Below the pieces are notes generated by a model, which was not told the DNA's origin, did no database searches, and was given only the letters and a program-made list of their open reading frames with translations. From positions 409 to 64,408 of the forward strand of contig JAYTDC010000068.1 in NCBI GenBank assembly GCA_043736115.1: a stretch of DNA of 64,000 nt. The letters run 5' to 3'. Shown here in pieces: positions 4,440-58,623 of the stretch. The translations under genes and the position numbers were made by a program. How positions within the stretch are numbered: the stretch's first letter is position 1; every line of letters starts with the position of its first letter. Origin of the DNA: Segetibacter sp. (GTDB lineage Bacteria; Bacteroidota; Bacteroidia; Chitinophagales; Chitinophagaceae).

Positions 4440-7400
4440 ATGAAAACATACACTACCCTAAGGCTTAATTCAGCATTGAGAGCAATGCTATGCAGCAACT
4501 ATCAACTGTTTGCCAAAAACCTGAACAGGAAATTATTTATGGCAATTGCATTGACCATTTTCCTCTGTTCATTTAACAGGGCAAATGCACAAGGCCCCCC
4601 TAATTTACCACCAACAGACATTGCTTTGTCCCCAACCTCCGTAAACGAAAATGTTCCTGCTAATACAGTAGTCGGTACCCTTAGCACCGAAGACCCCGAT
4701 GCGGGCAATACTTTTACCTATTCGTTGGTATCCGGTACAGGCAGCACCGACAATTCCTCATTTATTATTGCAGGCAATGGTATAAAAATCAACATAAGCC
4801 CCGACTACGAAACCGAAAGCGTTTATGCTATTCGTGTAAAAACAACCGATCAGGGCGGGTTTTCATTTGAAAAAGAATTCACCATTACCATCAACGATTT
4901 GTGTGACATTCCTACACCAACTATTTCAGCAGGTGGAGCTACAACCTTCTGTACAGGTGGTTCAGTTGTTTTGTCATCCAGTTCCACCACCGGCAATCAG
5001 TGGTATGTTGATGGAAACATCATGAATGGTGAAACCAATCAGGATTATACAGCAACAGCAAGCGGAACTTATACGGTGGTAGTTGCTGCCAACGGCTGTT
5101 CTTCATCACCTTCACTTGGTAGTGTTGTTACAGTAAATGTCATTCCATCCACACCAACTATTTCAGCGGGTGGAGCTACAACCTTCTGTACAGGCGATTC
5201 GGTTACTTTATCTGCATCCGGTGCCAGTATCCTTTATCAGCGGTATGCATCAACTGTTATTAATTTTAGTTCAGAATATACTCCAACAGATTGGAGTGCC
5301 AACCAGGTACTTGGCGCACCTGATGTATATCCTTCTTATGGAGATTTAGTTAATGCATGGGCGAGCTTAAACGCTGATGATTCCCGTGAGTACCTTGAAT
5401 TAGGTTACTCCAATCCGGCTCCCATCAACTTCATTGATATCTATGAAACCTATTCACCGGGTGCGGTTGACACAGTGTATGTTAAAAATCCGAATACCGG
5501 TTTGTTTGAAATCGTTTATACAGCTACTGCGGTAGCAGCACCTGCGGTTGCACGCATATTGCACATTACATTTCCTGAAACAAGCTTTAATGTTTCGGAA
5601 ATACGAATTGCGATAAATTCAGGGGCAGTGCCCGACTTTAATGAAATTGATGCAGTGGCAATAGGAAAGGAGGGCAATTATTTATGGTCAACAGGTGCAA
5701 ATACACAAAGTATTACCGTTAAAACAGCAGGCAGCTATACGGTGCAGGTCACCAACAGCAATGGTTGTAGTGCAACATCTGCGGCCACCACAGTAACAGT
5801 AAATTCCATTTTTCCTACAATTACCGTATCTACCCTGCCTGCAACTTCCACTGTGGTTGATTTTGATAATACTGCCAGTGCTATTACCGGTTCGTTTAGT
5901 TTTTGGCCTAGCGGTACTTTTTCACAACCTTTTACACCCCAAATCACAGGTCAACTTAATCAAATAGGCATATCTGTTAATTTTAATGCTGGATTCGTCA
6001 TGTATGATATTAGTTTATCAATAACGGATGGAGTAACTACTCTTCATCAACAAAAATTTTCTTTTTCCGGTACAGGTCCTCGAGGTATAACGTTATCTAA
6101 TCCTGTAAATGTAATTTCCGGTAGCCAATATTATATTATAATATCATGGTCTTGGATTGGTGATCCCAGTACTATGTTGGGGTGGGCAGTTGATTTAAAT
6201 AACGCTGACTTAATTTACAAAACGTATATTCTTCCAACGCCTACAGTATGTGCAGGCTCACCTGCAACACTCACTGCCTCGGGAGCAACATCCTATAGCT
6301 GGAGTGGAGGGGTTACCAACGGGGTTCCTTTTAATCCTTCAACTTCTGCAACATATACTGTAACTGGTACAACGAATGGATGCAGCAGTACGGCAACACA
6401 GATGATAAATGTTACCCCCAACAATACCGCCGGAGTGCCTTCCTCCAATCCTACGGCTTGTATCAATACTGCGTTGACCGATATCATACAAAGTACAACA
6501 GGAGCAACCGGTATTGCAGATGATGGAGTAAGCGGAGTAAACGGATTACCGGCAGGTGTTTCTGCAACCTGGGCAAGTGACCAGATTACAATAAGTGGAA
6601 CACCAACTGCAAGTGGCACATTCAACTACAGCATTCCATTGACAGGTGGTTGCGGTAGTGTAAATGCAACGGGAGCAATTACTGTAGGGCAACCCACTAC
6701 TTCTGATACCACTGCTGCTGTTTGTAATAAGTTTACGTGGCACGATAGTACTTACAAAGTATCAACAGATGCCATTTGGCACACCACCACTGCAGCCGGT
6801 TGCGATAGTGCAAGGACACTGCACCTCACTATATTATCGGTTACTTCAACAACTTCCAAAACAGATGCTGCATGCTATGGTTCGTCAACAGGTGCTATAA
6901 CTGTAAACCCTACTGATGGTGTTAGTCCGTTTACCTATCGCATAGGTACGGTGAGTAGTTATGTCTCCACAAACACTTTCAATAATCTTAGGGCAGGAAA
7001 ATACAGGGTGTCTATCTTGGATGCCAACGGCTGTGCAGGCATAACAAGTCAGGTAACTATTACCCAGCCTTTAGCTCTTACAGGCACTGCTTCTGTTGCC
7101 AATGCAACTTGTTATGGAGGCGCCAAAGGTTCAATTGCCGTAACACCATCAACAGGCATTGCACCGTATATGTACAAGTTAGGAACTACAGGCACTTTTG
7201 GCAGTTCAAACCTGTTCAGCAATTTAAAAGCCGGAGCATACAGGGTGTATATTCAGGATATAAATAGTTGTGTGGGTAATATTGTGGTAACATTAACCCA
7301 ACCAACCAAACTTAGCGCTACCCACACCAAAACAGATGAAACCTGCCCGAATGCAAAAAATGGTTCATTAACGGTAACCGGTGCAGGTGGTACAGCCAAT

Positions 7401-7802
7401 ACTTTTAATAACCTCAAAGCAGCGCAGTATAGGGTATTTATTAATGACGCCAATAACTGTACAGGTTATTCTATTGGGGTACCAATTTTGCAAACACAAC
7501 CTATCTGCCCCATTGTAACAAGAGATATAGCAGCCAAAACAGACATAGCCACTACACAGCAAGGTCTTGCTGTTCAGTTATCTCCCAACCCAAGCAACAG
7601 CTATTTTACGTTGCGTGTAAAAGCTACAGAACAAAGTGCTGTACAAATAAGGGTGATTGATGTAAACGGCAGAAGCATGTTTACAGCCAAAGGACTACCC
7701 GAACAGGCTTTCAGATTTGGTGAATCATTTGCACCGGGTTTGTACATGATAGAAGTAAGACAAGGGGATGGAGTGAAAACGGTGAAAGCAGTGAAGAATT
7801 AA
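4440..7802 (+). CDS. T9SS cargo: cadherin-like domain + Ig-like repeats with two inserted domains + 3 SprB repeats + CTD
   Basis: Cadherin-like PTDIALS..VNEN...EDPD...DYE....IRV..TDQGG; [13 protein letters not shown] Ig repeats; SprB stalk; CTD. Confidence 0.85.
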
Positions 7803-30608: not shown

Positions 30609-31013
30609 ATGAAAGTAGAAAAGTACCCATTGTCGGCCCCTTCTCCATTATGTATAAATTACACATTAATGGGTTCCATTTTTATGTTGATAATGTTATT
30701 TACCCTATCATTATCAGCACAGAAAAAAATTAAAAAAAGTTCAATAGAACACAAGCATTCACAGCTAAATAACTACAGGTTAACCTATAAAATTATACTT
30801 GCAGAAAAAGGAACTTTTGGTTATGACATTTTTGATAATAATAGAAAAATGATACATCAGCCATCAGTGCCAGGTATGCCAGGAAATAAAGGATTTAAAA
30901 GAAAGACTGATGCTGCTAAAGTAGCCCAACTAGTCCTACATAAAATTAACCATAATCAAATGCCCCCTACTGTTTCTAAACAAGAGTTAGATTCTTTAAA
31001 AGTAAAATTTTAA
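30609..31013 (+). CDS. DUF4907 domain protein
   Basis: GTFGYDI......IHQP.VPG.PG.KGF....DA.KVA.LV..KI.....PPTVS..EL. Confidence 0.85.
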   Translation: MKVEKYPLSAPSPLCINYTLMGSIFMLIMLFTLSLSAQKKIKKSSIEHKHSQLNNYRLTYKIILAEKGTFGYDIFDNNRKMIHQPSVPGMPGNKGFKRKTDAAKVAQLVLHKINHNQMPPTVSKQELDSLKVKF

Positions 31014-31154: not shown

Positions 31155-34100
31155 ATGCTTAAGATTTTACTACTTTTATTTTGCACTTTTTTTATTGCTG
31201 AAACTTCTTTTGCACAACCCTGCGCAGCTACAATTACACCTAGTGGTTCTACTACTTTTTGCTCAGGAGGTAGTGTAATTTTAAATGCTAATACAGGTGC
31301 AAATACATGGACTCAAAAGTCAGCTTTTGGAGGTACTGCCCGAAATGCATATGCTGCTTTTAGTATAGGCAACAAAGGTTATATAGGTACAGGTAATGAT
31401 GGTTCTGTACTTACCAAAGACTTTTGGGAATATGACCCTGCTACTGATACTTGGGCTCAAAAAGCCAACTTTGGAGGCACTCCAAGACGGTATGCAGTAG
31501 GATTTTGCATAGGAAGCAAAGGCTATATAGGAACAGGTTATGACGGTAGTTACCGTAAAGATTTTTGGGAGTACAATCCCACTAATAATACTTGGTCACA
31601 AAAAACAGATTTTACAGGTACAGCCCGGGATCAGGCTACAGGATTTGCAATTGGCAATAAAGGATATATTGGAACCGGTAACGATGGGGGGTATAAAAAA
31701 GATTTTTGGGAATATGATCCTACTAGTAATAACTGGACTCAAAAAGCTGATTTTGGTGGATCTGCAAGAAATGCCGCAACCGGTATTTTTATTGGAGGCA
31801 AAGGATATATAGGAAATGGGTTTGACGGAGGGTATAAAAAAGATTTTTGGGAGTACAATACAACAAATAATACATGGATTCAAAAATCTGACTTTGGAGG
31901 TTCACCAAGAAATGCATGTACAAGTTTTAGTATAGGCACTAAAGGATATATGGGAATGGGCTTTGATGGGGGATACAAGAAAGATATCTGGGAATATGAT
32001 CAAAATGTAAACACATGGATACAAAAAGCTGATTTTGGTGGTAGTGGTCGAAATGCCGCAATTAGTTTTAGTATTGATGGTAGTGGATATGTAGGGCTTG
32101 GGTTTGATGGTGCATATAAAAAAGATTTCTGGCAATACAATCCTGCACTTTTATACTTATGGTCTAATGGAGCTACTACACCCTCTATTACCGTTACCAC
32201 CTCCGGTAGCTATACCGTAACAGTAACGAATACAGCTACAGGATGTAGTGAAACTTCTACAACAACAGTAGTAACCGTTAACAACACAATGGGCATTGCT
32301 ACCGTGACAGCAGCTGCTAATCCCCTATGCATAAACGCAACAACAACCCTAGCTGCCAATGGAGTTTACGGAAGCAATGCTGTAGTTACCTGGTGGACAT
32401 CTGCCGGGGGAACGGGTACTAACCTGGGAACAGGTAACACATTATTAAATGTTGGTCCAGGTACTTATTATGCAAGAGTTACAGGAGATTGTAATCCGGT
32501 TGAATCATCTCTTGTAATAACTACAAAAACCAATGTCGGAATTGTGTCTGTAAGTGCTGCAGAAAATTTTATTTGTCCGGGTAGTACAACTACCTTAACG
32601 GCAAATGGTATTACGGGTACCAATACGTTAGTCAATTGGTGGACTGGCACAGGTGCAACAGGGTCGAGTTTAGGAACAGGATCCACCTTATTAAATGTGG
32701 GTCCGGGTACTTATTATGCCTATGTGACCGGTGATTGCGGAAATCCTGTAGAAGGAATTATTGAAGTTAATTCCAAAGTAAATAATGGGATTGTATCAAT
32801 AACAGCTGCTACAAATCCGCTTTGTAATAATTCTACCACTTCAATAACTGCAAATGGTGTTACCGGTACAAATGCAGTTGTTACGTGGTGGTCAGCATCG
32901 GGAGGGACCGGTAGCAATTTAGGAACCGGAATTACCTTACCCAATGTTACAGCAGGTACATATTATGCGGTTGTTAACGGAGATTGCGGTGCATCAGCTG
33001 AAGCTTCATTAACAATTGATGCACTTTCTGTTAATTCAATAGCATCGGCAACAGCGGCTGCAAATCCTTTATGTACTAATTCAACTACTTCATTAACTGC
33101 TAATGGTATAGCCGGATCTAATAGTACAATTACATGGTGGTCAGCATCGGGCGGTAATGGTATTAATTATGGTACCGGCTCTACACTTACCAATGTATCT
33201 ATAGGTACTTATTTTGCAAGAGTAACAGGTGATTGCGGATTACCCGCCGAAGCTTTTGTAACGGTGTCAGGAAAATCTCCAACATCATCATCCGTAACCG
33301 TTTCAAATTGTATTAGCTATACCTGGCATGGTACAGTTTATAAAACCTCAGGCAATTATACTTACACTACAATAAATGCTGCAGGCTGCGATTCTGTTGT
33401 TACCCTTCGCCTTACTATTTTTGCAACAATAACATCGACATTTACAAAAAAAGATGCTGCTTGTAATACAGTATCAACCGGTTCAATTACAATTAACCCA
33501 ACAAAAGGTTATGCCCCATTCACTTACAGAATAGGTACTACCGGAAGTTTTACCCCATCTAATACTTTTAATGGTTTAAGTGCAGGCTTGTACAGAATTT
33601 CTATACTTGATGTAAATGGTTGCACGGGCACATCTACCCAAATTACAGTTGTACAACAAACTACAATTACAGGAATATTTACGAAAAAAGATGCTACCTG
33701 TAATAATATTTTAAATGGTTCTATCATTATTACCCCAACAAGTGGTACGGCACCGTTCGTATATAAATATGGAACTGCCGGAAATTACATTACAGACAGT
33801 ATATCCTTAGGGTTAGGCATAGGGGAATACCGGGTATATTTGCAAGATGTAAACGGCTGCAACATCAATACAAGCCTAACAATTAATCAACCTGTTCCTG
33901 TTACGGTTTCTGCTGTTACTACCAATACTAAATGTATAGGTGCTAATAATGGTAGCATTACAGCCACTCCAAATTCAGGTTTTTCTCCATTCACCTATAA
34001 ATTAAATTCCACAGGTACATATCAGACCTCAAACAAATTCCTAAATCTAAAAGCAGGAGTATATACCGTATTTTTAAAGGACAAAAATGGTTGTATAGGC

Positions 34101-34667
34101 TACAAAGGTGCCACAGTGGGTCAACCCATTGTTATGAGTGCGGTAGCTACAAAAACAGATGCACTTTGTCCCGGTTCTGCTACAGGCAATTTATCCATAA
34201 CCCCATCAGGCGGTACAGCCCCTTATACCTACAGACTTGGCTCCACGGGTACTTTTGGCACAGCAAATACTTTTTATAATCTTAAACCGGGGTCATACAG
34301 AGTATTTATTATTGACGCAAATGGTTGTTCAGGATTCTCAATTGCTGTTACCATTGGTACTCAATCGGTCGCCTGTACCTCAAGCATTATTGCCAAACAA
34401 GAAAATGTAATCAACAGTGAACAGTTAAATTCATCTAACTACTCACTTTATCCCAACCCCACAACTAATAACTTTTGGGTTGATTTTGGTAAAATGAATA
34501 AACCAATATTGGTAAGATTACTTGATATAAATGGTCATATAATATCAACAGTAAAAGCACAAGGCAAACAGGTCATCAACTTTGGCCATAAACTGATGCC
34601 GGGACTTTATATTGTTCAAATTTTAGAAGACAGCAAAGTAACTAGCCTAAAAGTTTTAAAAATTTAG
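31155..34667 (+). CDS. T9SS cargo: 6-blade Kelch propeller + 4 Ig-like repeats + 4 SprB repeats + CTD
   Basis: Six W.QK..FGG..R..A..F.IG.KGYIG.G.DG.Y.KDFWEY blades; four ANG..G....V.WW...G.G..LG.G..L.NV..GTY...V.GDC repeats; SprB stalk; CTD. Confidence 0.9.
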   Translation: MLKILLLLFCTFFIAETSFAQPCAATITPSGSTTFCSGGSVILNANTGANTWTQKSAFGGTARNAYAAFSIGNKGYIGTGNDGSVLTKDFWEYDPATDTWAQKANFGGTPRRYAVGFCIGSKGYIGTGYDGSYRKDFWEYNPTNNTWSQKTDFTGTARDQATGFAIGNKGYIGTGNDGGYKKDFWEYDPTSNNWTQKADFGGSARNAATGIFIGGKGYIGNGFDGGYKKDFWEYNTTNNTWIQKSDFGGSPRNACTSFSIGTKGYMGMGFDGGYKKDIWEYDQNVNTWIQKADFGGSGRNAAISFSIDGSGYVGLGFDGAYKKDFWQYNPALLYLWSNGATTPSITVTTSGSYTVTVTNTATGCSETSTTTVVTVNNTMGIATVTAAANPLCINATTTLAANGVYGSNAVVTWWTSAGGTGTNLGTGNTLLNVGPGTYYARVTGDCNPVESSLVITTKTNVGIVSVSAAENFICPGSTTTLTANGITGTNTLVNWWTGTGATGSSLGTGSTLLNVGPGTYYAYVTGDCGNPVEGIIEVNSKVNNGIVSITAATNPLCNNSTTSITANGVTGTNAVVTWWSASGGTGSNLGTGITLPNVTAGTYYAVVNGDCGASAEASLTIDALSVNSIASATAAANPLCTNSTTSLTANGIAGSNSTITWWSASGGNGINYGTGSTLTNVSIGTYFARVTGDCGLPAEAFVTVSGKSPTSSSVTVSNCISYTWHGTVYKTSGNYTYTTINAAGCDSVVTLRLTIFATITSTFTKKDAACNTVSTGSITINPTKGYAPFTYRIGTTGSFTPSNTFNGLSAGLYRISILDVNGCTGTSTQITVVQQTTITGIFTKKDATCNNILNGSIIITPTSGTAPFVYKYGTAGNYITDSISLGLGIGEYRVYLQDVNGCNINTSLTINQPVPVTVSAVTTNTKCIGANNGSITATPNSGFSPFTYKLNSTGTYQTSNKFLNLKAGVYTVFLKDKNGCIGYKGATVGQPIVMSAVATKTDALCPGSATGNLSITPSGGTAPYTYRLGSTGTFGTANTFYNLKPGSYRVFIIDANGCSGFSIAVTIGTQSVACTSSIIAKQENVINSEQLNSSNYSLYPNPTTNNFWVDFGKMNKPILVRLLDINGHIISTVKAQGKQVINFGHKLMPGLYIVQILEDSKVTSLKVLKI

Positions 34668-35744: not shown

Positions 35745-38087
35745 ATGAGAAAGATTACATTACTTCTGCTCTGTATTTGCGGATCGCAATACCTTCAGAG
35801 TCAAACCTGTATTTCTACAATTAATGCAGATGGACCCACTACATTTTGTCAGGGTGACAGTGTAGTTCTTACAGCAAACTCAGGGAATGCATGGATGCAA
35901 AAAGCAAATTTTATGGGTACATCAAGGCGCTATGCTGCCGGATTTAGCATAGGCAATAAGGGTTACATTGGAACCGGTTATGATGGTGCTTATAAAAGGG
36001 ATTTCTGGGAATATGACGCTGCAAACAATACCTGGACTCAAAAGGCTACTTATGGAGGTTCAGGACGCAGAGGAGGCACTGGATTTTCAATTGGCACTAA
36101 AGGTTACATAGGAACAGGATATAATAGTAAATACCTGAAAGATTTTTGGGAATATAATCCTGCAACCAATACGTGGACAAGAAAAGCTGAATTTAAAGGA
36201 GCCGCAAGAACAAGTGCAGCTGGTTTTAGCATTGGTAGTAAAGGTTATATAGGAACGGGTAATGACGGAAAGAAAAAAAGTAAAAATGACTTTTATGAAT
36301 ATAACCCATCTACAAACAAATGGACCCGTATGGCTGACTTTGGCGGATCTGTACGTATGGGAGCGGTTGGGTTTAGCATAAATAATATGGGATATATTGG
36401 AACGGGTTCAACATTTAACGGTAAAGAAAAAGGTGATGATAACGAGGAGAATGAAAACCAAAATATAGAAGATATGCTTATGGATTTTTGGCAGTACAAT
36501 CCAACTACTGATTCCTGGACAAGAAAAGCTGATTTTGGAGGTGGAGCCCGATATTTTGCTACCGGATTTAGTATAGGTAGCCGGGGTTATATTGGTACAG
36601 GATCTGATGTTGTAAACCGTAAAAAAGATTTCTGGGAGTACAACTCTGCCACAAACACCTGGAACCAAAAATCTGATTTTGGTGGTTCAGCCCGTCAGGG
36701 AGCAACAGGTTTTAGTATAGGCTGTGCAGGTTATATGGGTACCGGTAGTACAGGTTCTTATCAAAATGATTTTTGGCAGTACAATGGCGCAATTGGTTAC
36801 TTATGGTCTACCGGTGAAACTACACAATCTATTACAGTAACTACAAGTGGTAGTTACAGTGTAACAGTTATCAACCCGGCAAACAATATAAGTACAACTT
36901 CTGCTGCTGTTGTAGTTACTGTAAATCAACCTACAAGTTCTGAAACTACAGTAGAAATTTGCAATAGTTATATGTGGAACGATTCTACCTATACTGCATC
37001 AGGCGATTATACTTTTATTACTACCAATGCTGCGGGTTGTGATTCTGTAGCTACGCTTCACCTAACTATATTATCTGTGTCGTCAACTTATACCAAGACA
37101 GATGCTATTTGCTATGGTTCTGCAACGGGATCTATAACGGTTACCCCCACAAGTGGAGTAGGCCCATATACTTATAGAATTGGTACTGTAGGAAGCTTTG
37201 GATCATCCAATACATTTACAGGTTTAAGAGCGGGTAGTTATCGTGTATTTATTCTTGATGATGCAGGATGTGCCGGGGTTACAGATGCAATAATTGTGGA
37301 TGAGCAGTCAGTCATTACTGCAACATACAATGTGACAGATGTAGCATGCTATGCAACATACACCGGTTCTATTGAAGTATTAGCCACCGGTGGTACAACG
37401 CCTTACACCTATAGATTAGGTACTTCAGGCGCATTTGTAAGTAATAATATTTTCCCTAATCTAAGAGCCGGATCTTACAGAACGTATATAGAAGATGCAA
37501 ATGGTTGTGGTATAAACTCATCAGTTATTGTTAGCCAACCATCGGCCGTAACAGCAACTGCTACAAATACAGATGTATCCTGTATTGGAGGAAATGATGG
37601 ATCTATTACTGTAAATGGTGCAGGTGGTACAGCACCCTTCACTTATAGGTTTGGTACAAGTGGTGCATATAGCACAGTAAACACTTTCAACAATCTTAGA
37701 GCAGGTAGCTTCAGAATCTATACAAAAGATGCAAATGATTGTGGCGGTGGATCTATAAAAGTAATAGTTATGGATGGCACATCACCTTGTGGACCTATTT
37801 CTACATTTGCCCGTTCCATAAATATGCAATCATCTAACTTAACTTCTAAAGAAGTTACACTTTCACCAAACCCAACAAAGAACCAATTCATTTTATCCAC
37901 TACGACTAAAACAAACAATACAGTTCAAATAAGAGTTTTAGACGCCAACGGTAGAATTGCTTTAAATCTTAAGGGTCAGGGAGGGCAGCAATTAAAATTC
38001 GGAGAGCAATTAGCCCCCGGTGTTTACTTAATAGAGGTAAACCAAGGAAGTGTTACTAAAATAATTAAAGGAGTAAAAATAAAATAA
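35745..38087 (+). CDS. T9SS cargo: 6-blade Kelch propeller + 3 SprB repeats + CTD
   Basis: Same Kelch blade motif x6; NAAGCDS neck; SprB repeats; CTD. Confidence 0.9.
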   Translation: MRKITLLLLCICGSQYLQSQTCISTINADGPTTFCQGDSVVLTANSGNAWMQKANFMGTSRRYAAGFSIGNKGYIGTGYDGAYKRDFWEYDAANNTWTQKATYGGSGRRGGTGFSIGTKGYIGTGYNSKYLKDFWEYNPATNTWTRKAEFKGAARTSAAGFSIGSKGYIGTGNDGKKKSKNDFYEYNPSTNKWTRMADFGGSVRMGAVGFSINNMGYIGTGSTFNGKEKGDDNEENENQNIEDMLMDFWQYNPTTDSWTRKADFGGGARYFATGFSIGSRGYIGTGSDVVNRKKDFWEYNSATNTWNQKSDFGGSARQGATGFSIGCAGYMGTGSTGSYQNDFWQYNGAIGYLWSTGETTQSITVTTSGSYSVTVINPANNISTTSAAVVVTVNQPTSSETTVEICNSYMWNDSTYTASGDYTFITTNAAGCDSVATLHLTILSVSSTYTKTDAICYGSATGSITVTPTSGVGPYTYRIGTVGSFGSSNTFTGLRAGSYRVFILDDAGCAGVTDAIIVDEQSVITATYNVTDVACYATYTGSIEVLATGGTTPYTYRLGTSGAFVSNNIFPNLRAGSYRTYIEDANGCGINSSVIVSQPSAVTATATNTDVSCIGGNDGSITVNGAGGTAPFTYRFGTSGAYSTVNTFNNLRAGSFRIYTKDANDCGGGSIKVIVMDGTSPCGPISTFARSINMQSSNLTSKEVTLSPNPTKNQFILSTTTKTNNTVQIRVLDANGRIALNLKGQGGQQLKFGEQLAPGVYLIEVNQGSVTKIIKGVKIK

Positions 38088-51249: not shown

Positions 51250-54200
51250 TTACTGCGTCAATGAAATCCTGATTTGTATGCCTGCCCTTACATTGGTTGT
51301 AGGTGCAGAAGTAGAAATGTATGGAATTACTTTTCTGCGGTCGTAATAGAGTTTTATATTGACCCTGTTGTTAAGTACATAATCTATTGACGGCTGCAGA
51401 GTGTACACTTTTTGCCCGCCGGTGCTAAAGGCATTGTCCTGGTCAAGACGACTGTTGCTTGTAGCATCGTCACGCATACTTACATCCAGACGGAAGTTTA
51501 CATCGTTCTCCAGTTTTTTACCTTTGGTAAATGGCACCTTGAATGGAAGACTGAAACCTTTCTTTCTCCAACTTGCACCAAATGTCCATTCGGTACTATT
51601 GATCTCACTTAGTTGATAATCTACAAGGCTCAAACTTAACTGCCTGCTCTTTTTGTATTGGAAGCTACCGGTAACCTGACTGACTGTGGTAAAGTCCATA
51701 CCGACAAGGGGTCCGAACGATTCCTGTATAGTTACATTTGGAACAAGGAAGTAGGGAATGAAATTTCCTGAAATAGTATCTCTGAAACTTGGGAATAAAT
51801 AATTCAACCTATCCTCGTACAATAAGGCACTATTGAAAGTATTCATACCAAGATTTCCTGTATAAGCATGTGTAATACTAATGGTGCTGAAAGTGGAAGC
51901 CAATGATGGTATACGGGTAAGCCCTGTATAGGTAAGCCGCCAGTTTGGTAATGGTTTTATGGTACTGAATGGATTGCTCTTGATATTTGGATTGGCCTGT
52001 TTTATTAAACCCACCTTTTGTGGATCCTGACCGGTATATGCTGCTATAAAAGATGGAATTAATACATCCTGTGCATAACGGTTATAGCCAATGTAATAGC
52101 CATCTGCTGCCTTGCCTAAATTTTGTTGATACGGATTAGACAATGCCAGCCTTTCTGACAATATCAACCTGTATGTTTCAAACTTGCGGAAGGTTTCAGA
52201 TATTTCCGTGGGCTTTCCTTTGCTGAAAAGTGTTTTGAATGCTATATATGATACATTGAAACCGCCTGTTGCTAATGGATTCAAATGCTGAAACTTTCCT
52301 CCATCAGATATTACCTTATACAATTCAGAATAGTCTTTTGTATAGGTCTTATCAAGGTTAAGGTCTATGGTAAACTCCCTGATTGGCTCTAGTTGTGCTG
52401 TGATGCTTAACTTCTGATCCAGACTTTGGCGATATAAATAGTTGAGCGTGGTATCTCTTGTTATCAGTCCATTTGCAGCTTTTTCTTCAAGCCATTGGTT
52501 ATCGGGTTGTTTACCAAATACATAGTCTAACCCCGGTGCCATACTGTTCCAGTTTTGTCCAAGGTATTGTGTACTGTCTGTATAACCCGGAACACGGCTC
52601 TTATAATTTTCACCATAGTTAATAGAAGCACGTTTAACCATGGTAAGCAACCTACCTCCTGCCTTTTCTATACCATTCATTTCTACAGGACGATTGGCCC
52701 GTTGCTGACGGTAATTTCTTTTTTCTTCCCTACGTTGGGTTCTCCATTTTCTTAAAGCAACCCTACGTGCTTTGCCGGTGAGCCCTTTAACCACATCTTC
52801 TCTTGACGGAAGGGATGATTTAAATTCATCGTCCTTTTTATCCTCTTTAGGTTCGTCTTTTTTCTTCTCATCACCCAACGTATTTTTTTTGTTTTTGCCA
52901 GATTTTTTGCCACCTTTTTTGCCATCGCCCTTATCTTCATCACTTCCCTTGTCATCATCCTTGGGAGGTGCCGGTGCAGCATCCTGATCCAACGCTCTTA
53001 GCCAACGCACCTTGGAATATATACGGGTAAAGTCAAACTCACCATTGATGTTATTTTCCTGACTATTTTCAATTGTATTGCCCAGGTTAATGCCTAACTG
53101 TCTTTGTATACGGCTTGCACCAATCCAATTATAAGTAGTCGTATAACTGTAGCGTGCATTTACAAAACTGGTAAGCGGAAACTTAGAAAGCGGTAATGTA
53201 TAGCTTGCAATAGCCTTTTGCTGGTAATTGGTATTTCTACCTCCATTTAATAAATTAGTGCGTACAGTATCATTTTTTTCTTTGGTATCAATTCTACCAT
53301 AAGGTTCGTCTATACGTGCATTGTTAACTGCAGAAAAATCTACATTGAATGAGCGGGTAAGGTCCCAACGCATATTGTAATAACGGTCAAAAGTGAAAAA
53401 CTTATCGTAAGTAGTATCTACTGCTTCAACCTTATTGTCAAAGCTGTTTACAATACGTGGTACAAACTCTCCAAACTGCCTGTTTATATCTGCCCTAAAG
53501 CTTAGCAAAGATGGTTGCGGATTAAAGTTGAGGTCTTTAATAAGTGTGTACCACTGTGATTTGGATTTAATAATTTTTTTAAATGGCTCAAGATACTTTG
53601 GAGCTGTATTGTTAAAGGTATAACCCAATCCTACTCTATGTTTTACTACATCATTGCGTTGTATAAGTGGCGTTGTTTGTTCAAATTTGATAAAGGAATA
53701 ACTGACATCCAGATTGCTTGGACTCCATATTCTTGTTTTAGCACCGGGTGTTAATCTTACGTTGGTGAAGTTGACTGTTTTTATAGTGGTTTTATCAACT
53801 GCTGCTTTTTTAGCTGCAGACTTTTTATCACCGCTAAGGGTGTTTAGCTTATCCTTCAGTTTTATATCAAGGTCATAAGGGTCATATTGTGGCGACTTAA
53901 CCGTTTGATTGATACTTGCATATACCGGAATAGAAATACCAACTGCCTTGGGTAATAGCTTGCCTAACTCAAGATTGGTTGCAATATCATACTGCATCAG
54001 GTCTTCTCTTGCCCTTTCGTTTATCCGTTGCTCCAATGTACCAAAACCTGTTGTATGAGTACTTGCAGATATTGCTAATGTACCGAGGTCAGCTAATGCA
54101 ATATCTACACGTCCTGTTGCAGCATACCCCCCTTGCTCGTTGAGCTTGGAAAGTCGAAGTTCATTTATCCATATTTCTGCGTCAGCAGGTACACCATCAG

Positions 54201-57200
54201 ATACAACTGTATTTTCGACTCCAACTAAAAACGCTTTTACCTCACCAAGATTGGGATTGCCCCTTATAGCAAATGATCTGTTTCCAATAGTTTGTTTATA
54301 ATAACCATCGGGGCTAATGTTTGCAGCATTTCGTTGTGTTTTTAGCTGTATCAATTGTTGAAGATCTAAGTCTAGGCTATTACTATCAGGCCAAACACTT
54401 TTTTTGCCCTCTTCCGTATTTGGATATTGACCATTAGGAGTAATTTTAAGTGGTATTTTGATCTCATAATAATTATTTGCAAAATCATTTCCAATTCTTA
54501 TTACAGCATTCAACTGATTTTCAAATAAAGCCTGACTTCCTTTAAGGGTTTCAGCATGTATAAACATACTTAACTTACCATATTGGCGCATATCGAGGTT
54601 CATTGTTTTGAATGCTCCACGTACAGTATTTGTTGCCAGATTACGAACCTGAAAACTCATTGCCTGCTCATTTTGCAGAAGATTTACACCATTGTTACTC
54701 AATTGCTGTACTCTTTCTATTCCGGGGGGTATCAGGTAGTTGACAGGTTGACGCTTACTGTTTTCCTCCACGTTTACTGCAAGCACATTGAAGTTGGTAG
54801 GGTCAGGTATGGGAATGGGTTGGTTAGTTCCTGTTGAGTCAATATTAAATCTCGCTGTCCTCCATTGGTTTCTTACTAAATCAAAACGTGCAAAACGCAA
54901 AGTAACAGAGTCTTCAAAATCCGTAAGGAACATTCTCATAAATCTTATAGATTTAAAGTCAGGAATGTTACCAACTTTAGATTCATAGTTTTTAATAGGC
55001 ACCCTGAATAAATACCAGTTTTCTACCCCTTGTGTTCCGTCTGCATAGGTAACCCTTACTTCTTGTTTATCGGTAATGTAGTTAGAACCAACGCCCATGT
55101 TTGGAGTAAGGTCAATTCTATATTGATAGTATTCTTCTGTTTCATTTAAGGTATTATCTCTGTTAAGATCTTCATTGTCAGGGTACAAAGTAGCTGCAGG
55201 GCTAAACTGTGAACTTGTGGTAGAAATGGGTGAATTGCCTTGTGGGTTGTTGTAGTCTTTGTAACGGCCAAGCAATCCTGTACCTGTAGCATCGTACGAA
55301 GCATCTCTGTACCATTTATAATCATCGTTAGAAGGATCATTTAACACCCTTGAAAGCAATGGCGAACCGGGAAAATTTTGCCTGATTATGTTAACATAAT
55401 CTCCATTTCTTTTTACCAGTTCATCTGCATCATTTAAGCCATCAAAACCCACATCCTGAAAAGGCCTGTCGGCAGGATCGTTGCTAAAAGCCTGTGTCAC
55501 CTGTATTGGATTCACCGGTGTTCTTCCCCAAACAGTAGAGGTATCTACAGCAGATGGTTGATTGGGTGAATTGAGACCATTTTCATAAAACCTCCTGCTA
55601 TCTTTTAAGATGTCTTCACTTAAAGTACCAAGGTTAAGATAAAGTTTACCACCTCTGCTTGTTGAGTTTTTGATAAAAGGATCCTGCACCCAAAACTCCA
55701 TAAACTCTACATTGCTGGTTTCAAAATCTGTTTGATCAAGGGCACGCATAATACCGCCCCATTTAGCGGCAGGATTTTTAAATTTACCACTACCATCCAA
55801 TTCGGATATTCTGCTTTCGAAGTTGTAAGGGCCAATATCTTTTGGATAAAAAGAAAGGTCAAAAGTTACCGATTGATTTTCACCAAGATTATTGGTACGC
55901 TGTGGAAAAAGCTCCTGATTGTAAACGGCTCTTACCCGTGGATCACTTAACTCTATTACATTTTTCTTGAGTGGATTATTAGCACTATTTCTATCCTGTA
56001 GTATGGGTTCAATATTGTACCACGCCAACTTTGCCCTGTTTTTGTTGTAGTCTAAACTATCATTGAGTGCTGCTTCAGCAAATTGTTGCGGTGTACTTGC
56101 CAAAGCCCATGATATAAAAGGGAAACGAAGGTCAATACTGTTTCTTGTTCCTTCAAAATCGTCAATGTAAATTAAGCCTTCATCGCCTGAGCCAATTTGA
56201 GCCGGATGCCCCGGTTTAAGAATTGCCGCTTCACCATAAGCATTGATGGTGGACATTGCCGTAGTGTTATAAAAAGGAAGTTTGTTCAACAATCTGGTAA
56301 GACCCGGGGCTTCAGTACGGTAGTTGAAATCAAGCCCGTACATGGTGTTCTTGATTGGGTCGTCTCCATAATTGACTTTGGTAAAAAATGGTCTTTCTGA
56401 TAAACGAACTATACTGGCACCCAAAGACAATTTTTTGTTAGCAATATAATCCAATCGCAGCCCCATAAAGTTGCGCTGCTGCACCCCAAAACCTGCATTG
56501 TTTTCAAACTGTACATTTACCGGGATACCACTGTTTAGGATTGCACTATTAAGGATTTTAACCGTACCAAGGTTATAATCAATACTAAAGTCAAAACCTT
56601 CGCGGAGTACCTGCCCACCCGCCGATACAGTAACAGAACCTTGTGGTACATTAAATGCTCCCAGATATATTTCTGATGCCGAGTTGCCCTTACCCGAACC
56701 TTGCATTACAAAACGATTAAGGTTGGCATAGGTCTGTGCTATTGCCTTTATGGAATCATAGAGCGGATAGTAAATGTATTTGTCTTTTACGGCCTGACTT
56801 TGAGAATTGAAAGCCAAAGCTTCAAGGTCTCGTCCAAAAGGTTCAAGTAAAGGGAATATTATTTTACCCTGTTGCGATAATACCGTAAAGCCTTCTACAA
56901 AATCAAAAACACCATCGGGTTGTGGGTCATTTTGGTTGTTCAGCCGGTCCATATTTAAAATGCGTAATAAGGAACGACCCGAAACAACAGTATCTGATTG
57001 GGGTAAAAACCGCTTCAGTCCACCACTCGGCTCCTCGTATAACACATTCAGCTTAAAATCTTCTCTTGTTATACCGGGTAGGTCAAGCGAGTAAACGTTT
57101 TTCATCATCCACTTCCAAATAGGTAATTTGGGTCTTTGAGAGGTGGCTTTCAACAATTTTAAAAACAACACTTTTTGTACGCCTTGTGTTGAATCTAAAG

Positions 57201-58623
57201 TTACATCCTGCGCAAATTCGCCCACCTGATAGACTTTGCCGTTATAAGTATATTGATAGGCTACACCCAATACTTCATCAGGCTGTAACTGTTGGTTAAG
57301 GGAGACAAACCCTATTTGTGGATTGAAATAATATTCGTTGGGAGTGAGCTTGCGGGCAAATGTTTTTTCATAATCCTCAACTGGCTTTAAACCAAAACCA
57401 GGCCCCGTAAGTGTTGTGTTTACCAATACAGGATTACGGCTAAGCTGCAATAGTTTGGAATACAAATTATTAGCACCATTATAAGGTAATGAACCATCAC
57501 CGTTTGATGGATTATTATTTGGGTTGTAAGGTTTACCCTCACCCAAATCCATTAAAGCTACAACATCACGTGTATCAGTGGTAGCACCGGTACGATTGGT
57601 TACCCAAACTTCAATACGCATAATTTGTACCTGACTGTTTACAACAGGTACATTTTTCATGGCTTTGTTATAATTCTGACGAAAATAATCACCTAACAAA
57701 AAGTGCTTGTTTTCTTCGTAATCATCTAATCTTTTGTTGAAAGTAGTAGTAGCTGCCCCGCCCTGCAAAGCCAAAGACTGACGTTGTGCTTTTTGATTAG
57801 CCAATACACCGGTTACATATAACTTGCCAAACTGCAGCGATGTCTTAACACCAAATAAACTTTGTGCACTTGGTATCAATGTTCCCTTACTTGTATAGGA
57901 TACATTACCAGCTTCTATTGACTTAATAATCTCATCGTCCATGCCTTTGTAGTCCAGTTTTAGCTGATTTTCAAAGTCAAAGTTGGCCAACGTGTTATAG
58001 TTAATGGGTAGCTTTAATTTATCACCGATGTTTGCAATAACATTGATGTTGGAATTCATGTTGAAATCAAATCCACCATTCTTTCTTGCACTTTCAGGCA
58101 ATGTAGGATTTTCTATATTTTGTCCCTGATAACCTGCGGTAATGTCCACATTTCCCTGTGGCCTTATATCTACTTTTAAACCATTTGGACCAACACCAAA
58201 AATGCGGTCAAAAAGCTTATCGTAGGTTTTAAGCTTAGGCCGTGAAACTTTTCTGTTAAGGATGCTAAGTGTGTTGGCTCTTTTTCTAAAATATTCGGCC
58301 TCCTGTTGCTGCGCTTTAAAACGCATCATTTCGTCAAACGTAAGATAGGTGGGTGTTCGGTAGTAGCTGTTACCAATTTTTTCTACAATAATGTATTTTT
58401 TAGAAATGGGATCGTATTCTACATCTCTTTTTATATAAGAAGTATCAGAGAAGTTAAACGGATTATTGGAACGGTAGGTGAATGGATCGCCCTGTCTATC
58501 CTGAATAGGATAACGTGTAGTATCTCCACTACCCCCGGTTTGGGCGTAAGATCGGGCTACAAAAATTGCGCTTAAAAAAATAACAATAATTGCCTGCTGA
58601 AAGTATTGATTTCGACGGTTCAA
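51250..58623 (-). CDS. sprA: T9SS outer-membrane translocon SprA (Sov)
   Basis: 2457 aa; GDKLKL..NY, IIKSIEAGNV, DYEENKHF, YPDNEDLNRDN, WINELRL, C-terminal V.AGIQIRISL; downstream of ruvA. Confidence 0.96.
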   Translation of the reverse strand: MNRRNQYFQQAIIVIFLSAIFVARSYAQTGGSGDTTRYPIQDRQGDPFTYRSNNPFNFSDTSYIKRDVEYDPISKKYIIVEKIGNSYYRTPTYLTFDEMMRFKAQQQEAEYFRKRANTLSILNRKVSRPKLKTYDKLFDRIFGVGPNGLKVDIRPQGNVDITAGYQGQNIENPTLPESARKNGGFDFNMNSNINVIANIGDKLKLPINYNTLANFDFENQLKLDYKGMDDEIIKSIEAGNVSYTSKGTLIPSAQSLFGVKTSLQFGKLYVTGVLANQKAQRQSLALQGGAATTTFNKRLDDYEENKHFLLGDYFRQNYNKAMKNVPVVNSQVQIMRIEVWVTNRTGATTDTRDVVALMDLGEGKPYNPNNNPSNGDGSLPYNGANNLYSKLLQLSRNPVLVNTTLTGPGFGLKPVEDYEKTFARKLTPNEYYFNPQIGFVSLNQQLQPDEVLGVAYQYTYNGKVYQVGEFAQDVTLDSTQGVQKVLFLKLLKATSQRPKLPIWKWMMKNVYSLDLPGITREDFKLNVLYEEPSGGLKRFLPQSDTVVSGRSLLRILNMDRLNNQNDPQPDGVFDFVEGFTVLSQQGKIIFPLLEPFGRDLEALAFNSQSQAVKDKYIYYPLYDSIKAIAQTYANLNRFVMQGSGKGNSASEIYLGAFNVPQGSVTVSAGGQVLREGFDFSIDYNLGTVKILNSAILNSGIPVNVQFENNAGFGVQQRNFMGLRLDYIANKKLSLGASIVRLSERPFFTKVNYGDDPIKNTMYGLDFNYRTEAPGLTRLLNKLPFYNTTAMSTINAYGEAAILKPGHPAQIGSGDEGLIYIDDFEGTRNSIDLRFPFISWALASTPQQFAEAALNDSLDYNKNRAKLAWYNIEPILQDRNSANNPLKKNVIELSDPRVRAVYNQELFPQRTNNLGENQSVTFDLSFYPKDIGPYNFESRISELDGSGKFKNPAAKWGGIMRALDQTDFETSNVEFMEFWVQDPFIKNSTSRGGKLYLNLGTLSEDILKDSRRFYENGLNSPNQPSAVDTSTVWGRTPVNPIQVTQAFSNDPADRPFQDVGFDGLNDADELVKRNGDYVNIIRQNFPGSPLLSRVLNDPSNDDYKWYRDASYDATGTGLLGRYKDYNNPQGNSPISTTSSQFSPAATLYPDNEDLNRDNTLNETEEYYQYRIDLTPNMGVGSNYITDKQEVRVTYADGTQGVENWYLFRVPIKNYESKVGNIPDFKSIRFMRMFLTDFEDSVTLRFARFDLVRNQWRTARFNIDSTGTNQPIPIPDPTNFNVLAVNVEENSKRQPVNYLIPPGIERVQQLSNNGVNLLQNEQAMSFQVRNLATNTVRGAFKTMNLDMRQYGKLSMFIHAETLKGSQALFENQLNAVIRIGNDFANNYYEIKIPLKITPNGQYPNTEEGKKSVWPDSNSLDLDLQQLIQLKTQRNAANISPDGYYKQTIGNRSFAIRGNPNLGEVKAFLVGVENTVVSDGVPADAEIWINELRLSKLNEQGGYAATGRVDIALADLGTLAISASTHTTGFGTLEQRINERAREDLMQYDIATNLELGKLLPKAVGISIPVYASINQTVKSPQYDPYDLDIKLKDKLNTLSGDKKSAAKKAAVDKTTIKTVNFTNVRLTPGAKTRIWSPSNLDVSYSFIKFEQTTPLIQRNDVVKHRVGLGYTFNNTAPKYLEPFKKIIKSKSQWYTLIKDLNFNPQPSLLSFRADINRQFGEFVPRIVNSFDNKVEAVDTTYDKFFTFDRYYNMRWDLTRSFNVDFSAVNNARIDEPYGRIDTKEKNDTVRTNLLNGGRNTNYQQKAIASYTLPLSKFPLTSFVNARYSYTTTYNWIGASRIQRQLGINLGNTIENSQENNINGEFDFTRIYSKVRWLRALDQDAAPAPPKDDDKGSDEDKGDGKKGGKKSGKNKKNTLGDEKKKDEPKEDKKDDEFKSSLPSREDVVKGLTGKARRVALRKWRTQRREEKRNYRQQRANRPVEMNGIEKAGGRLLTMVKRASINYGENYKSRVPGYTDSTQYLGQNWNSMAPGLDYVFGKQPDNQWLEEKAANGLITRDTTLNYLYRQSLDQKLSITAQLEPIREFTIDLNLDKTYTKDYSELYKVISDGGKFQHLNPLATGGFNVSYIAFKTLFSKGKPTEISETFRKFETYRLILSERLALSNPYQQNLGKAADGYYIGYNRYAQDVLIPSFIAAYTGQDPQKVGLIKQANPNIKSNPFSTIKPLPNWRLTYTGLTRIPSLASTFSTISITHAYTGNLGMNTFNSALLYEDRLNYLFPSFRDTISGNFIPYFLVPNVTIQESFGPLVGMDFTTVSQVTGSFQYKKSRQLSLSLVDYQLSEINSTEWTFGASWRKKGFSLPFKVPFTKGKKLENDVNFRLDVSMRDDATSNSRLDQDNAFSTGGQKVYTLQPSIDYVLNNRVNIKLYYDRRKVIPYISTSAPTTNVRAGIQIRISLTQ

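Follow-up and report, generated by a model that had tools for sequence, protein, structure and literature searches.

Cell-surface adhesion molecules with a ligand-binding domain inserted into a loop of an Ig-like sandwich include the integrin beta chain (beta-I in the hybrid domain) and RrgA, a tip adhesin of Gram-positive pili (D3 in D2 in D1), with host and passenger families that are unrelated to those described below and with each representing one fixed architecture rather than one loop with many passengers. Split Ig-like domains of RTX adhesins are reportedly also the subject of work by Graham et al. that appeared in 2024 (Proteins 92:933). The projection of ligand-binding domains by split Ig-like domains is established for RTX adhesins, including MpIBP, Vibrio cholerae FrhA, and Aeromonas AhLap, and the authors of these studies use the split itself to recognize where such domains lie (PMC10865825; PMC12077191). 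A nested arrangement has also been described for PAPP-A, in which the beta-sandwich M1 is discontinuous, consisting of P672–F701 and L884–G943, and domain M2 (F702–P883) "loops out from M1"; sequence similarity, according to the structure paper, had not been detected for this central region (PMC9579167).

The window analyzed here, a stretch of DNA of 64,000 nucleotides from Segetibacter sp., a soil member of the Bacteroidota, encodes proteins with a comparable organization. According to our main reading, to which we assign a probability of about 0.8, these are surface T9SS cargos with one Ig domain in two pieces, an autonomous passenger being held in a permissive B–C loop that has been used by several lineages, and with the Kelch composite having been amplified.

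Split Ig Domains in Three Genes

In g31155, g35745, and g4440, each of them one single ORF without interruption, the host Ig_7/PKD-like domain is cut between strands B and C. The initial annotation had proposed a split at one shared position in these genes, with coordinates that are right to within a few bases. An intact-Ig HMM of 69 positions was built from 26 uninterrupted Ig domains, all of the same genome, and the spliced hosts were found to match it from position 1 or 2 to position 69 with 73.0–93.4 bits (E = 1e-27 to 3e-21), which is far beyond chance. The halves are complementary and do not overlap, with the N pieces covering hmm 1–24 and the C pieces hmm 26–69. Jointly, the split halves make a complete Ig-like domain according to the HMM and, for g4440, also according to Pfam and AF2, with the Kelch units being judged by sequence. 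Furthermore, the spacing between N-half and C-half is bimodal: 1225 of the 1262 pairs are separated by 15 aa or less and 37 by more than 100 aa, with none at 16–100 aa. The hosts themselves are ordinary Ig_7-type domains, of a short "YLWS" subtype shared with 1126 intact copies. Since this loop measures 0–15 aa in intact hosts, the N and C termini of a passenger are implied to be adjacent at the host junction, as is expected for a closed propeller and for a jelly roll.

Several candidate split Igs were rejected. The half-HMM pair C57 (186 aa) proved on inspection to be two neighboring Igs, and the pairs C39 (83 aa) and C29 (99 aa) were excluded because they are probably of this kind as well. 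The 15 "other" cases of the metagenome sample are either SprB-like repeats or uninterrupted Igs whose N-halves have diverged.

The gene g31155 (31155..34667, forward strand) encodes a T9SS type A cargo of 1170 aa, as recognized from its ORF and from the Pfam families Kelch, SprB, and Por_Secre_tail, and its product consists of a signal peptide, a split Ig with nested Kelch domain, further Ig-like repeats, SprB repeats, and a C-terminal sorting domain, in this order. The Ig N-half (nt 31215..31301, aa 21–49, forward strand; strands A-A′-B; QPCAATITPSGSTTFCSGGSVILNANTGA) begins immediately past the predicted signal-peptide cleavage site, and the Ig C-half (nt 32154..32282, aa 334–376, forward strand) comprises strands C to G (YLWSNGATTPSITV...VVTVN). 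Against the intact-Ig HMM, the N-half alone scores 26.4 bits (hmm 2–23), the C-half alone 46.8 bits (hmm 27–69), and the two spliced together 73.0 bits (hmm 2–69). The passenger between them (nt 31302..32153, aa 50–333, forward strand) is a six-blade Kelch beta-propeller, on which Pfam, AF2, and Foldseek agree: Kelch_1/3/4 and Kelch_KLHDC2 score over their Pfam cutoffs, the propeller was modeled by AF2 with a pLDDT of >90, and human Kelch domains were matched in Foldseek (E = 1e-21; TM 0.82–0.87 on target).

In g35745, the N-half (35805..35885, forward strand), recognized with the intact-Ig HMM, and the C-half (36798..36926, forward strand), which is without the usual Cys of the GC motif, score 74.0 bits when spliced (hmm 2–69). 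The passenger (nt 35886..36797, aa 48–351, forward strand), identified by Pfam Kelch, is a six-blade Kelch propeller with an acidic loop insertion, and matches the HMM of the Kelch-in-Ig module over its full length (hmm 1–358). The earlier description of the inserts in both genes as six-blade Kelch domains is borne out by Pfam, and by AF2 and Foldseek on the Kelch unit.

The gene g4440 provides an internal control in the form of an uninterrupted Ig repeat of the "GNQWY" subtype (4914..5138, forward strand; 100.2 bits over hmm 1–69), which precedes the split Ig and had been correctly described as uninterrupted. In the split Ig, the N-half (5151..5222; 37.1 bits, hmm 1–24), the passenger (5223..5678), and the C-half (5679..5804; 48.7 bits alone) follow one another on the forward strand. 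The spliced Ig scores 93.4 bits against the intact-Ig HMM and clears the Pfam gathering cutoffs over its full length for both PKD (27.9 vs. 23.5) and Ig_7 (27.6 vs. 27.3). In the AF2 model of the unit (231 residues, from a 31-sequence alignment), the mean pLDDT is 89.9, with values of 86/95/78 for the N-half and 92–97 for the C-half—that is, with both halves confident. The best Foldseek matches of the unit are PAPP-A and PAPP-A2 (PDB 7y5n, 8hgh, 7ufg, and 8sl1; E = 1e-7 over 282–289 aligned columns), at an identity of 14–19% and a TM of 0.47. The confidence values and the PAPP-A match together suggest that the g4440 halves pack against each other. The prediction for g4440 is in line with a discontinuous Ig; in the Kelch unit, the Ig halves were modeled at a low pLDDT of 45–61 (from a 13-sequence alignment of paralogs). 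For g31155 and g35745, assembly of the halves into one Ig is supported at the level of sequence, and their spliced hosts align with Ig_7 and PKD over the full length at 13–16 bits (PKD 15–16), under the Pfam cutoffs.

The g4440 passenger is a 152-aa discoidin/galactose-binding-like jelly roll, assigned to PF25900 by precomputed annotation and characterized by Foldseek; PF25900.1 is listed for the window's own g4440 protein, and 3185 representative clusters match the passenger. A discoidin-type fold is indicated by the Foldseek matches, namely XRCC1-N, the discoidin domain of muskelin, several CBM32s, and APC10 (E = 2e-5 to 1e-3). At the sequence level, there was no match in a Pfam profile set without PF25900, single-sequence and unit-profile searches of the PDB returned nothing useful, and the best PDB sequences for the PF25900 family profile, those of factor VIII C2 and the neuropilin b domains, were non-significant (E = 0.02). 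The initial annotation had called the g4440 passenger FBXL4-like. The N-terminal fold of FBXL4 is described as nine-stranded and discoidin-like (PMC10308361), and is compatible with the fold of the passenger, for which PAPP-A is the nearest solved match. Homologs of this passenger that look eukaryotic by eye exist, for example P0102, which has the domain twice, along with what seems to be a BTB-like motif. A second uncharacterized domain of g4440 (aa 458–605) was tested as a relative of the 138-aa insert of P0201/P0254 and found to be unrelated.

Passengers of the B–C Loop

The initial annotation interpreted the Ig domain as a reusable socket, and this interpretation is supported, in that structure prediction and a survey of what lies between the two halves, both set beforehand as tests, did not refute it. 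The survey yielded more than the inserts of the window: besides Kelch, the B–C loop holds, in other organisms, PF25900, four instances of Laminin_G_3 (E = 1e-18 to 1e-26), an ArabFuran-catal-like and a 3keto-disac_hyd-like domain, both of them also ConA-like, and at least three uncharacterized domains. One split Ig carries two PF25900 copies in tandem, and several NHL propellers of this genome are nested one loop later than Kelch.

The passengers also occur free of the host. Neither Ig half accompanies 176 of the 227 PF25900 copies, as counted by an HMM screen that misses some N-halves, and most of the Kelch units in 80 loci match only hmm ~20–315 of the module HMM, with many of these free Kelch units sitting right behind a signal peptide.

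T9SS Context and Proposed Architecture

The assignment to T9SS type A cargo is based on hydrophobic N-termini, on a type A sorting domain at the other end, and on the presence of T9SS components in the genome. With TIGR04183 (cutoff 23), scores of 33.6 bits (g31155) and 37 bits were obtained among the cargo proteins of the window. The window also encodes SprA/Sov, the outer-membrane translocon of the T9SS (51250..58623, reverse strand; TIGR04189 equivalog, 2460.8 bits), and the genome thus has an export system for these cargos. Directly upstream of g31155 lies a DUF4907 gene (30609..31013, forward strand; Pfam DUF4907, 1.3e-16). Paralogs of it are found upstream of four of the eight Kelch-in-Ig genes of the genome, and DUF4907 adjoins or is fused to Kelch in 31 of 80 related loci, making it a recurrent partner of this Kelch subtype.

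In the architecture that we propose, the proteins would be sent to the cell surface by the T9SS, with Ig-like and SprB repeats forming the stalk. One Ig_7/PKD-like sandwich would be encoded as A-A′-B and then C to G, with an autonomous domain budding from the B–C loop, and the two pieces would fold into one sandwich, such that the stalk would stay continuous. Under standard Ig topology, both termini of the passenger would be anchored at the N-terminal, cell-distal pole of the Ig; since in g31155 and g35745 no domain of the mature protein precedes the split Ig, the propeller would then cap the tip of the fiber. Domains with discoidin/CBM32-like and LamG folds typically bind carbohydrates or proteins, and the passengers may serve as ligand-binding adhesin heads. 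The B–C loop would be a structurally permissive site where different lineages placed unrelated passengers, possibly by recombination within Ig repeats, and the Kelch-in-Ig would then have multiplied as one composite module in this Segetibacter-like genome.

Origin and Spread of the Split Domains

The split is real in the three genes originally pointed out but is not limited to them, as the genome, a draft of 191 contigs, contains 14 Kelch-in-Ig modules in 8 genes on 7 contigs, with up to three modules in tandem per protein. Split copies account for about one-third of the paired Ig domains in this genome. Overall, split Igs are rare, representing 2 of 396 Ig domains (~0.5%) in a sample drawn without regard to the insert, and none of the 79 focal C-halves is split; given this rarity, "reusable" might refer to no more than a few ancient events for each passenger. 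The same figures speak for a more restrictive account, in which there is no general socket, each passenger having entered once long ago and the composites having then spread by duplication and transfer, with the shared loop being only the place where an insertion spares the fold. We consider this account plausible but clearly less probable than the main reading. It is in keeping with the concentration of nested Kelch units in Chitinophagaceae-like genomes and with the 40–62% identity of the 14 modules to g31155 across their whole length, halves included. A tree of 84 propellers, in which 50 of 81 branches are without support and the topology is star-like, is compatible with either a single or a multiple origin of nested Kelch: it needs 20 changes between the nested and free states, compared with 26.5 for shuffled labels, and its well-supported branches force only 2 or more, as the restrictive account would allow (one incomplete unit, L002_742, having been wrongly labeled free). 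However, at least eight unrelated passenger types occupy the same loop, which requires at least that many events, and the hosts belong to a common subtype with its many intact copies. The tandem pair of passengers in one split Ig also argues against a single ancient entry, as does a recombination trace in g4440. There, the N-half opens with 44 nt that match the adjoining intact repeat at 97.7% identity (one mismatch, third codon positions included), past which identity drops sharply, to ~40% over the next 46 nt; such a tract with a sharp break shows ongoing recombination inside a half-domain. For the remainder of the g4440 unit, the nearest relatives belong to other organisms, at 72% identity. 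The restrictive account and the main reading differ in degree, not in kind.

The 44-nt tract is, in addition, the only direct hint of cassette movement. Half-Ig sequences could conceivably act as homology arms, with a passenger and its flanking halves forming a cassette that recombines between the Ig repeats of different stalk genes, although we regard this as unlikely. If it were true, Bacteroidota would swap adhesin heads at the domain level, and the cassettes would account for the variety of passengers that share a single loop as well as for the increase to 14 modules in this genome. Microhomology at the junctions, which the initial annotation had proposed to look for, was not observed: at six junctions, no k-mer was shared beyond chance, with the longest, of 6 nt, being reached in 551 of 1000 shuffles.

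Much less probable is a different view of the pieces themselves, according to which the N-piece is an independent beta-hairpin of the passenger, such as a Velcro strand closing the propeller, and the C-piece is a truncated Ig-like remnant. Kelch propellers are commonly closed by a strand from the other terminus, and AF2 placed the halves of the Kelch unit without confidence, both as this view would have it. However, the same N-piece stands ahead of unrelated passengers (jelly roll, LamG, and uncharacterized), its profile is identical to that of strands A–B of the intact Ig, with the C-piece starting where the N-piece stops, and Kelch propellers of this subtype that occur free lack the piece and are nevertheless whole; the g4440 halves, moreover, were modeled at high confidence. 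Finally, an assembly or annotation artefact, with chimeric contigs or frameshifts joining unrelated gene pieces, might be suspected in a draft genome but is refuted in practice by nested orthologs in independent assemblies (e.g., L001, 87% identity), and is also opposed by the uninterrupted ORFs, the distribution of the paralogous modules over 7 contigs, and dozens of nested PF25900 units in unrelated metagenomes.

Implications

Should the split-domain rule hold for T9SS cargo, the ligand-binding heads of Bacteroidota surface proteins could be located simply from sequence, with an N-half followed by a C-half more than 100 aa further on marking the head; thousands of such proteins are annotated merely as "T9SS sorting domain-containing" or "gliding motility-associated." The present modules further show that an Ig of 70 aa can accommodate an entire 300-aa beta-propeller in one of its loops, and that the combination can multiply in one piece. 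In addition, similarity in fold connects PF25900, a very common uncharacterized bacterial domain with >3000 representative clusters, with the nested M1/M2 unit that animals have in PAPP-A.

Comparison With Known Systems

The SprB-type adhesins of gliding Bacteroidota share with the window proteins the SprB repeats, a long beta-rich stalk, and a T9SS C-terminal sorting domain, but the window proteins are much shorter and carry a type A CTD. Full-text searches found no literature on nested heads in SprB-type proteins, and none on Kelch nested in Ig in Bacteroidota (searched with Kelch, T9SS, and domain insertion).

PAPP-A resembles the g4440 unit in its proportions, with an N piece of ~30 residues, a nested beta-sandwich of ~180 residues, and a C piece of ~60 residues, compared with 24 + 152 + 42 in g4440; PAPP-A is an animal metalloprotease, however, and not an adhesin stalk. 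At the sequence level, no match to PAPP-A was obtained with HMMER profiles. Common descent of the two composites is possible.

A close parallel in working principle is provided by the RTX adhesins, in which a two-piece Ig-like beta-sandwich of a fibrillar adhesin likewise lets a domain with adjacent termini bud out, and in which several unrelated passengers (a CBM, PA14, a peptide-binding domain, and an RTX roll) are found. The two systems differ in secretion system and in phylum (T1SS and Proteobacteria there, a T9SS type A CTD and Bacteroidota here), in the host domain (BIg extender-like there, Ig_7/PKD-like here), and in the position of the split, which follows the first strand in the AhLap crystal structure but three strands (A-A′-B) here. 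The passengers here are Kelch and NHL propellers, PF25900, and LamG, and a single genome has amplified the composite to 14 copies. The window proteins show no RTX repeats and end in a sorting domain of T9SS type A (PF18962, TIGR04183). They work like split-Ig RTX adhesins but do not belong to that family. The suggestion that the split Ig may be the most novel feature of the window was overrated, since split Ig-like domains had already been established for RTX adhesins (PMC10865825; PMC12077191). The principle is known; what is new here is its use in a T9SS stalk, where the Ig family, the loop, and the passengers all differ from those described before.

Architecture of the split Ig genes

The genes g31155, g35745, and g4440 (window positions 31155–34667, 35745–38087, and 4440–7802) each form one unbroken open reading frame and encode proteins with a signal peptide, SprB repeats, and a T9SS type A sorting domain. 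The pair of motifs described in the initial annotation was recovered in all three, with TFC.G.SV.L at residues 34–43, 33–42, and 248–257 and YLWS.G at residues 334, 352, and 414, respectively, and its coordinates were off by a few bases at most. The Ig N-half, insert, and Ig C-half occupy nucleotides 31215–31301, 31302–32153, and 32154–32282 in g31155; 35805–35885, 35886–36797, and 36798–36926 in g35745; and 5151–5222, 5223–5678, and 5679–5804 in g4440, which also contains an intact control Ig (4914–5138). The mature g31155 and g35745 proteins begin with the split Ig domain. A further domain of ~148 residues in g4440 (residues 458–605; window 5811–6254), arranged in line with an Ig repeat on either side, had no Pfam match and no relative among 262 proteins fetched from public collections. 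The same window carries a full-length SprA/Sov T9SS translocon gene (2457 residues; 51250–58623, minus strand) and six T9SS cargo genes.

One Ig domain from two pieces

Uninterrupted Ig domains from the window's genome (26 in all, no split copies) were used to train a profile HMM. With the inserts cut out in silico, the hosts align to this profile from position 1 or 2 to 69 of 69, scoring 93.4 (g4440), 74.0 (g35745), and 73.0 bits (g31155); the intact control scores 100.2 bits. The pieces are complementary, the N-pieces on their own matching positions 1–24 and the C-pieces 26–69, and their scores add up. Furthermore, the spliced g4440 host scores above the Pfam gathering cutoffs for PKD (27.9 versus 23.5 bits; profile 5–80 of 80) and Ig_7 (27.6 versus 27.3 bits; 1–83 of 84), while the spliced g31155 and g35745 hosts give full-length Pfam alignments with scores under threshold. 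All belong to a short "YLWS" subtype common to 1126 intact copies; the split hosts are not a special Ig subfamily.

The AlphaFold2 model of the g4440 unit—that is, both halves plus passenger, computed from an alignment of 31 nested homologs—has a mean pLDDT of 89.9 and a pTM of 0.74, with both Ig pieces confident (10-residue block means of 86/95/78 and 92/97/84/96). Three strands lie ahead of the insert and six short ones past it, so that the insert falls between strands B and C. In the Kelch unit, modeled from its 13 paralogs only, the propeller exceeds a pLDDT of 90 and the Ig pieces reach 45–61, so that the reading of the g31155 and g35745 halves as a putative single Ig domain rests on sequence evidence. 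Thus, the expected discontinuous Ig domain is supported by modeling in g4440, but not in the Kelch units.

Identity of the passengers

The g31155 and g35745 inserts are indeed six-blade Kelch propellers, as initially annotated: the cutoffs of several Pfam Kelch families are exceeded, and the best Foldseek matches are human Kelch domains (E 1e-21). The 152-residue g4440 insert had no match in the Pfam version searched and none among PDB sequences; PF25900.1 is given for it in the precomputed annotation of the g4440 protein. An exhaustive HMMER search placed 3185 representative clusters in this family at E ≤ 1e-3 and 1249 at E ≤ 1e-10. The g4440 model resembles discoidin/galactose-binding-like jelly rolls, namely XRCC1-N, the muskelin discoidin domain, CBM32 modules, and APC10, and the best matches of the family profile among PDB sequences, factor VIII C2 and neuropilin b domains, were non-significant (E 0.02). 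A discoidin-like N-terminal domain has been reported in FBXL4 (PMC10308361), which is compatible with the initial FBXL4-like label. By eye, two family members look eukaryotic, one (P0102) carrying an apparent BTB-like motif after two PF25900 copies and the other (P0108) with the N-terminus MGCAASK; the family thus seems to extend beyond bacteria.

Nesting within and beyond the genome

Pairing of N-half and C-half HMM matches across the 4.6-Mb genome yielded 28 intact Igs alongside split ones, the latter making up about a third of paired Ig domains. Nesting is wider than the three genes initially annotated: inspection gave 14 Kelch-in-Ig modules in eight genes, namely the two window genes and others on contigs C121 and C130 (three modules each), C51 and C33 (two each), and C143 and C140 (one each). 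A blade-motif scan found nine ORFs with at least three blades of the window Kelch subtype; eight are these genes, and the ninth (contig C107) has three widely spaced matches. Outside the window, a 2907-residue protein on contig C16 (122849–131569, plus strand) contains six-repeat NHL propellers (Pfam 1.4e-43), which lie inside an Ig in at least two fully read copies; there, the C/C' hairpin already belongs to the N-part, so that the insertion point is the loop after the one used in the window genes, and the score after splicing is only 25 bits. More C-only matches in this protein suggest additional nested NHL copies.

Among 1262 N–C pairs in the 262 public proteins, the spacing was at most 15 residues in 1225, 16–100 in none, and more than 100 in 37. 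The large gaps contain PF25900 (28 times), Laminin_G_3 (four proteins; E 1e-18 to 1e-26), one ArabFuran-catal-like ConA-type domain, and two unknown domains; a single split Ig in P0001 (residues 905–1291) holds two tandem PF25900 copies. In an insert-blind sample of 80 metagenomic loci picked by C-half similarity alone, the focal C-halves were intact in 79 of 79 usable loci, and two of 396 N–C pairs were split, both by new passengers (a 3keto-disac_hyd-like ConA-type domain and an unknown domain of ~110 residues). Split copies thus amount to ~0.5% of such Ig domains in general. From the survey and this sample together, at least eight unrelated passenger types have therefore occupied the loop, so the socket is not confined to the window's inserts. 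By eye, PF25900 in P0002 and P0037 appears to break SprB-like repeats rather than an Ig_7-type domain; if so, these would be a second kind of host.

Passengers also occur free. In an HMM screen of the best 150 representative proteins, 176 of 227 PF25900 copies had neither Ig half, an upper estimate because the screen overlooked some N-halves; such copies immediately follow signal peptides, form tandem pairs, or are flanked by domains of other types. The window Kelch subtype is present in at least 569 genomic stretches, mainly of Bacteroidota, the nearest genome being a Segetibacter sp. MAG (87% identity). On a whole-module HMM, nested Kelch units span positions 1–5 to 352–358 and free ones ~20–28 to 310–345, many of the latter being preceded by a signal peptide and followed by a T9SS sorting domain. 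Nested units are found in Chitinophagaceae (Segetibacter, Ferruginibacter), a Dyadobacter MAG, and a few unclassified Bacteroidota, and a tree of 84 propellers did not separate one nesting event from several.

Acquisition of passengers

The conserved junction microhomology that might have marked insertion was not found at the insert junctions. In g4440, the intact repeat and the split N-half share a tract (4914–4957 versus 5151–5194; 44 nt, 15 protein letters) with one differing base (97.7% identity), beyond which identity breaks sharply to ~40% over the next 46 nt. Same-subtype repeats elsewhere in the genome are 85–93% identical to the tract, and the rest of the split unit is nearest to proteins of other organisms (72% identity), a pattern indicating that the half-domain has likely undergone internal recombination or gene conversion. 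The tract is the only hint that recombination could use half-Ig sequences as its arms.

Geometry, function, and the DUF4907 partner

In the standard Ig topology, the B–C loop and the N-terminus share one pole; we infer that the propeller should therefore cap the distal tip of a C-terminally anchored stalk in g31155 and g35745. By analogy, and because of their folds (discoidin/CBM32-like, LamG, and Kelch/NHL propellers), passengers are most likely putative ligand-binding heads. A small DUF4907 gene (30609–31013, plus strand) lies directly upstream of g31155, and paralogs lie directly upstream of three further Kelch-in-Ig genes (contigs C130, C121, and C33). In other Bacteroidota, at 31 of 80 related loci, a DUF4907 ORF closely flanks the Kelch subtype, upstream or downstream, or is fused with it, whether the Kelch unit is nested or free; the two look like a conserved pair.

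Comparison with known nested domains

The analysis supports the Ig socket reading, and the nesting principle is already established, because it is seen in RTX adhesins, PAPP-A M1/M2, integrin beta, and RrgA. What is new is the setting—Bacteroidota T9SS cargo with an Ig_7/PKD-type host split after strand B—together with the propeller passengers, the range of domains hosted by a single loop, and the amplified composite, a combination of which no description was found in full-text literature searches. The novelty initially claimed is lowered by RTX adhesins of Marinomonas, Vibrio, and Aeromonas, in which "split Ig-like domains" "project" ligand-binding domains off the adhesin axis, the budding domains have adjacent N and C termini, and the Ig split is taken as a criterion in the search for ligand-binding domains (PMC10865825, PMC12077191). 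The best fold matches overall of the g4440 model are four PAPP-A/PAPP-A2 chains (E 1e-7; 282–289 columns), in an alignment that takes in the whole 231-residue model (window 5142–5834; residues 235–465); profile searches gave no sequence-level support for a relationship. In PAPP-A, M1 comprises P672–F701 and L884–G943, and M2 (F702–P883) "loops out from M1", a nested layout exactly as in the g4440 unit (PMC9579167). The bacterial split-Ig unit with PF25900 and animal PAPP-A M1/M2 may share a common ancestry.
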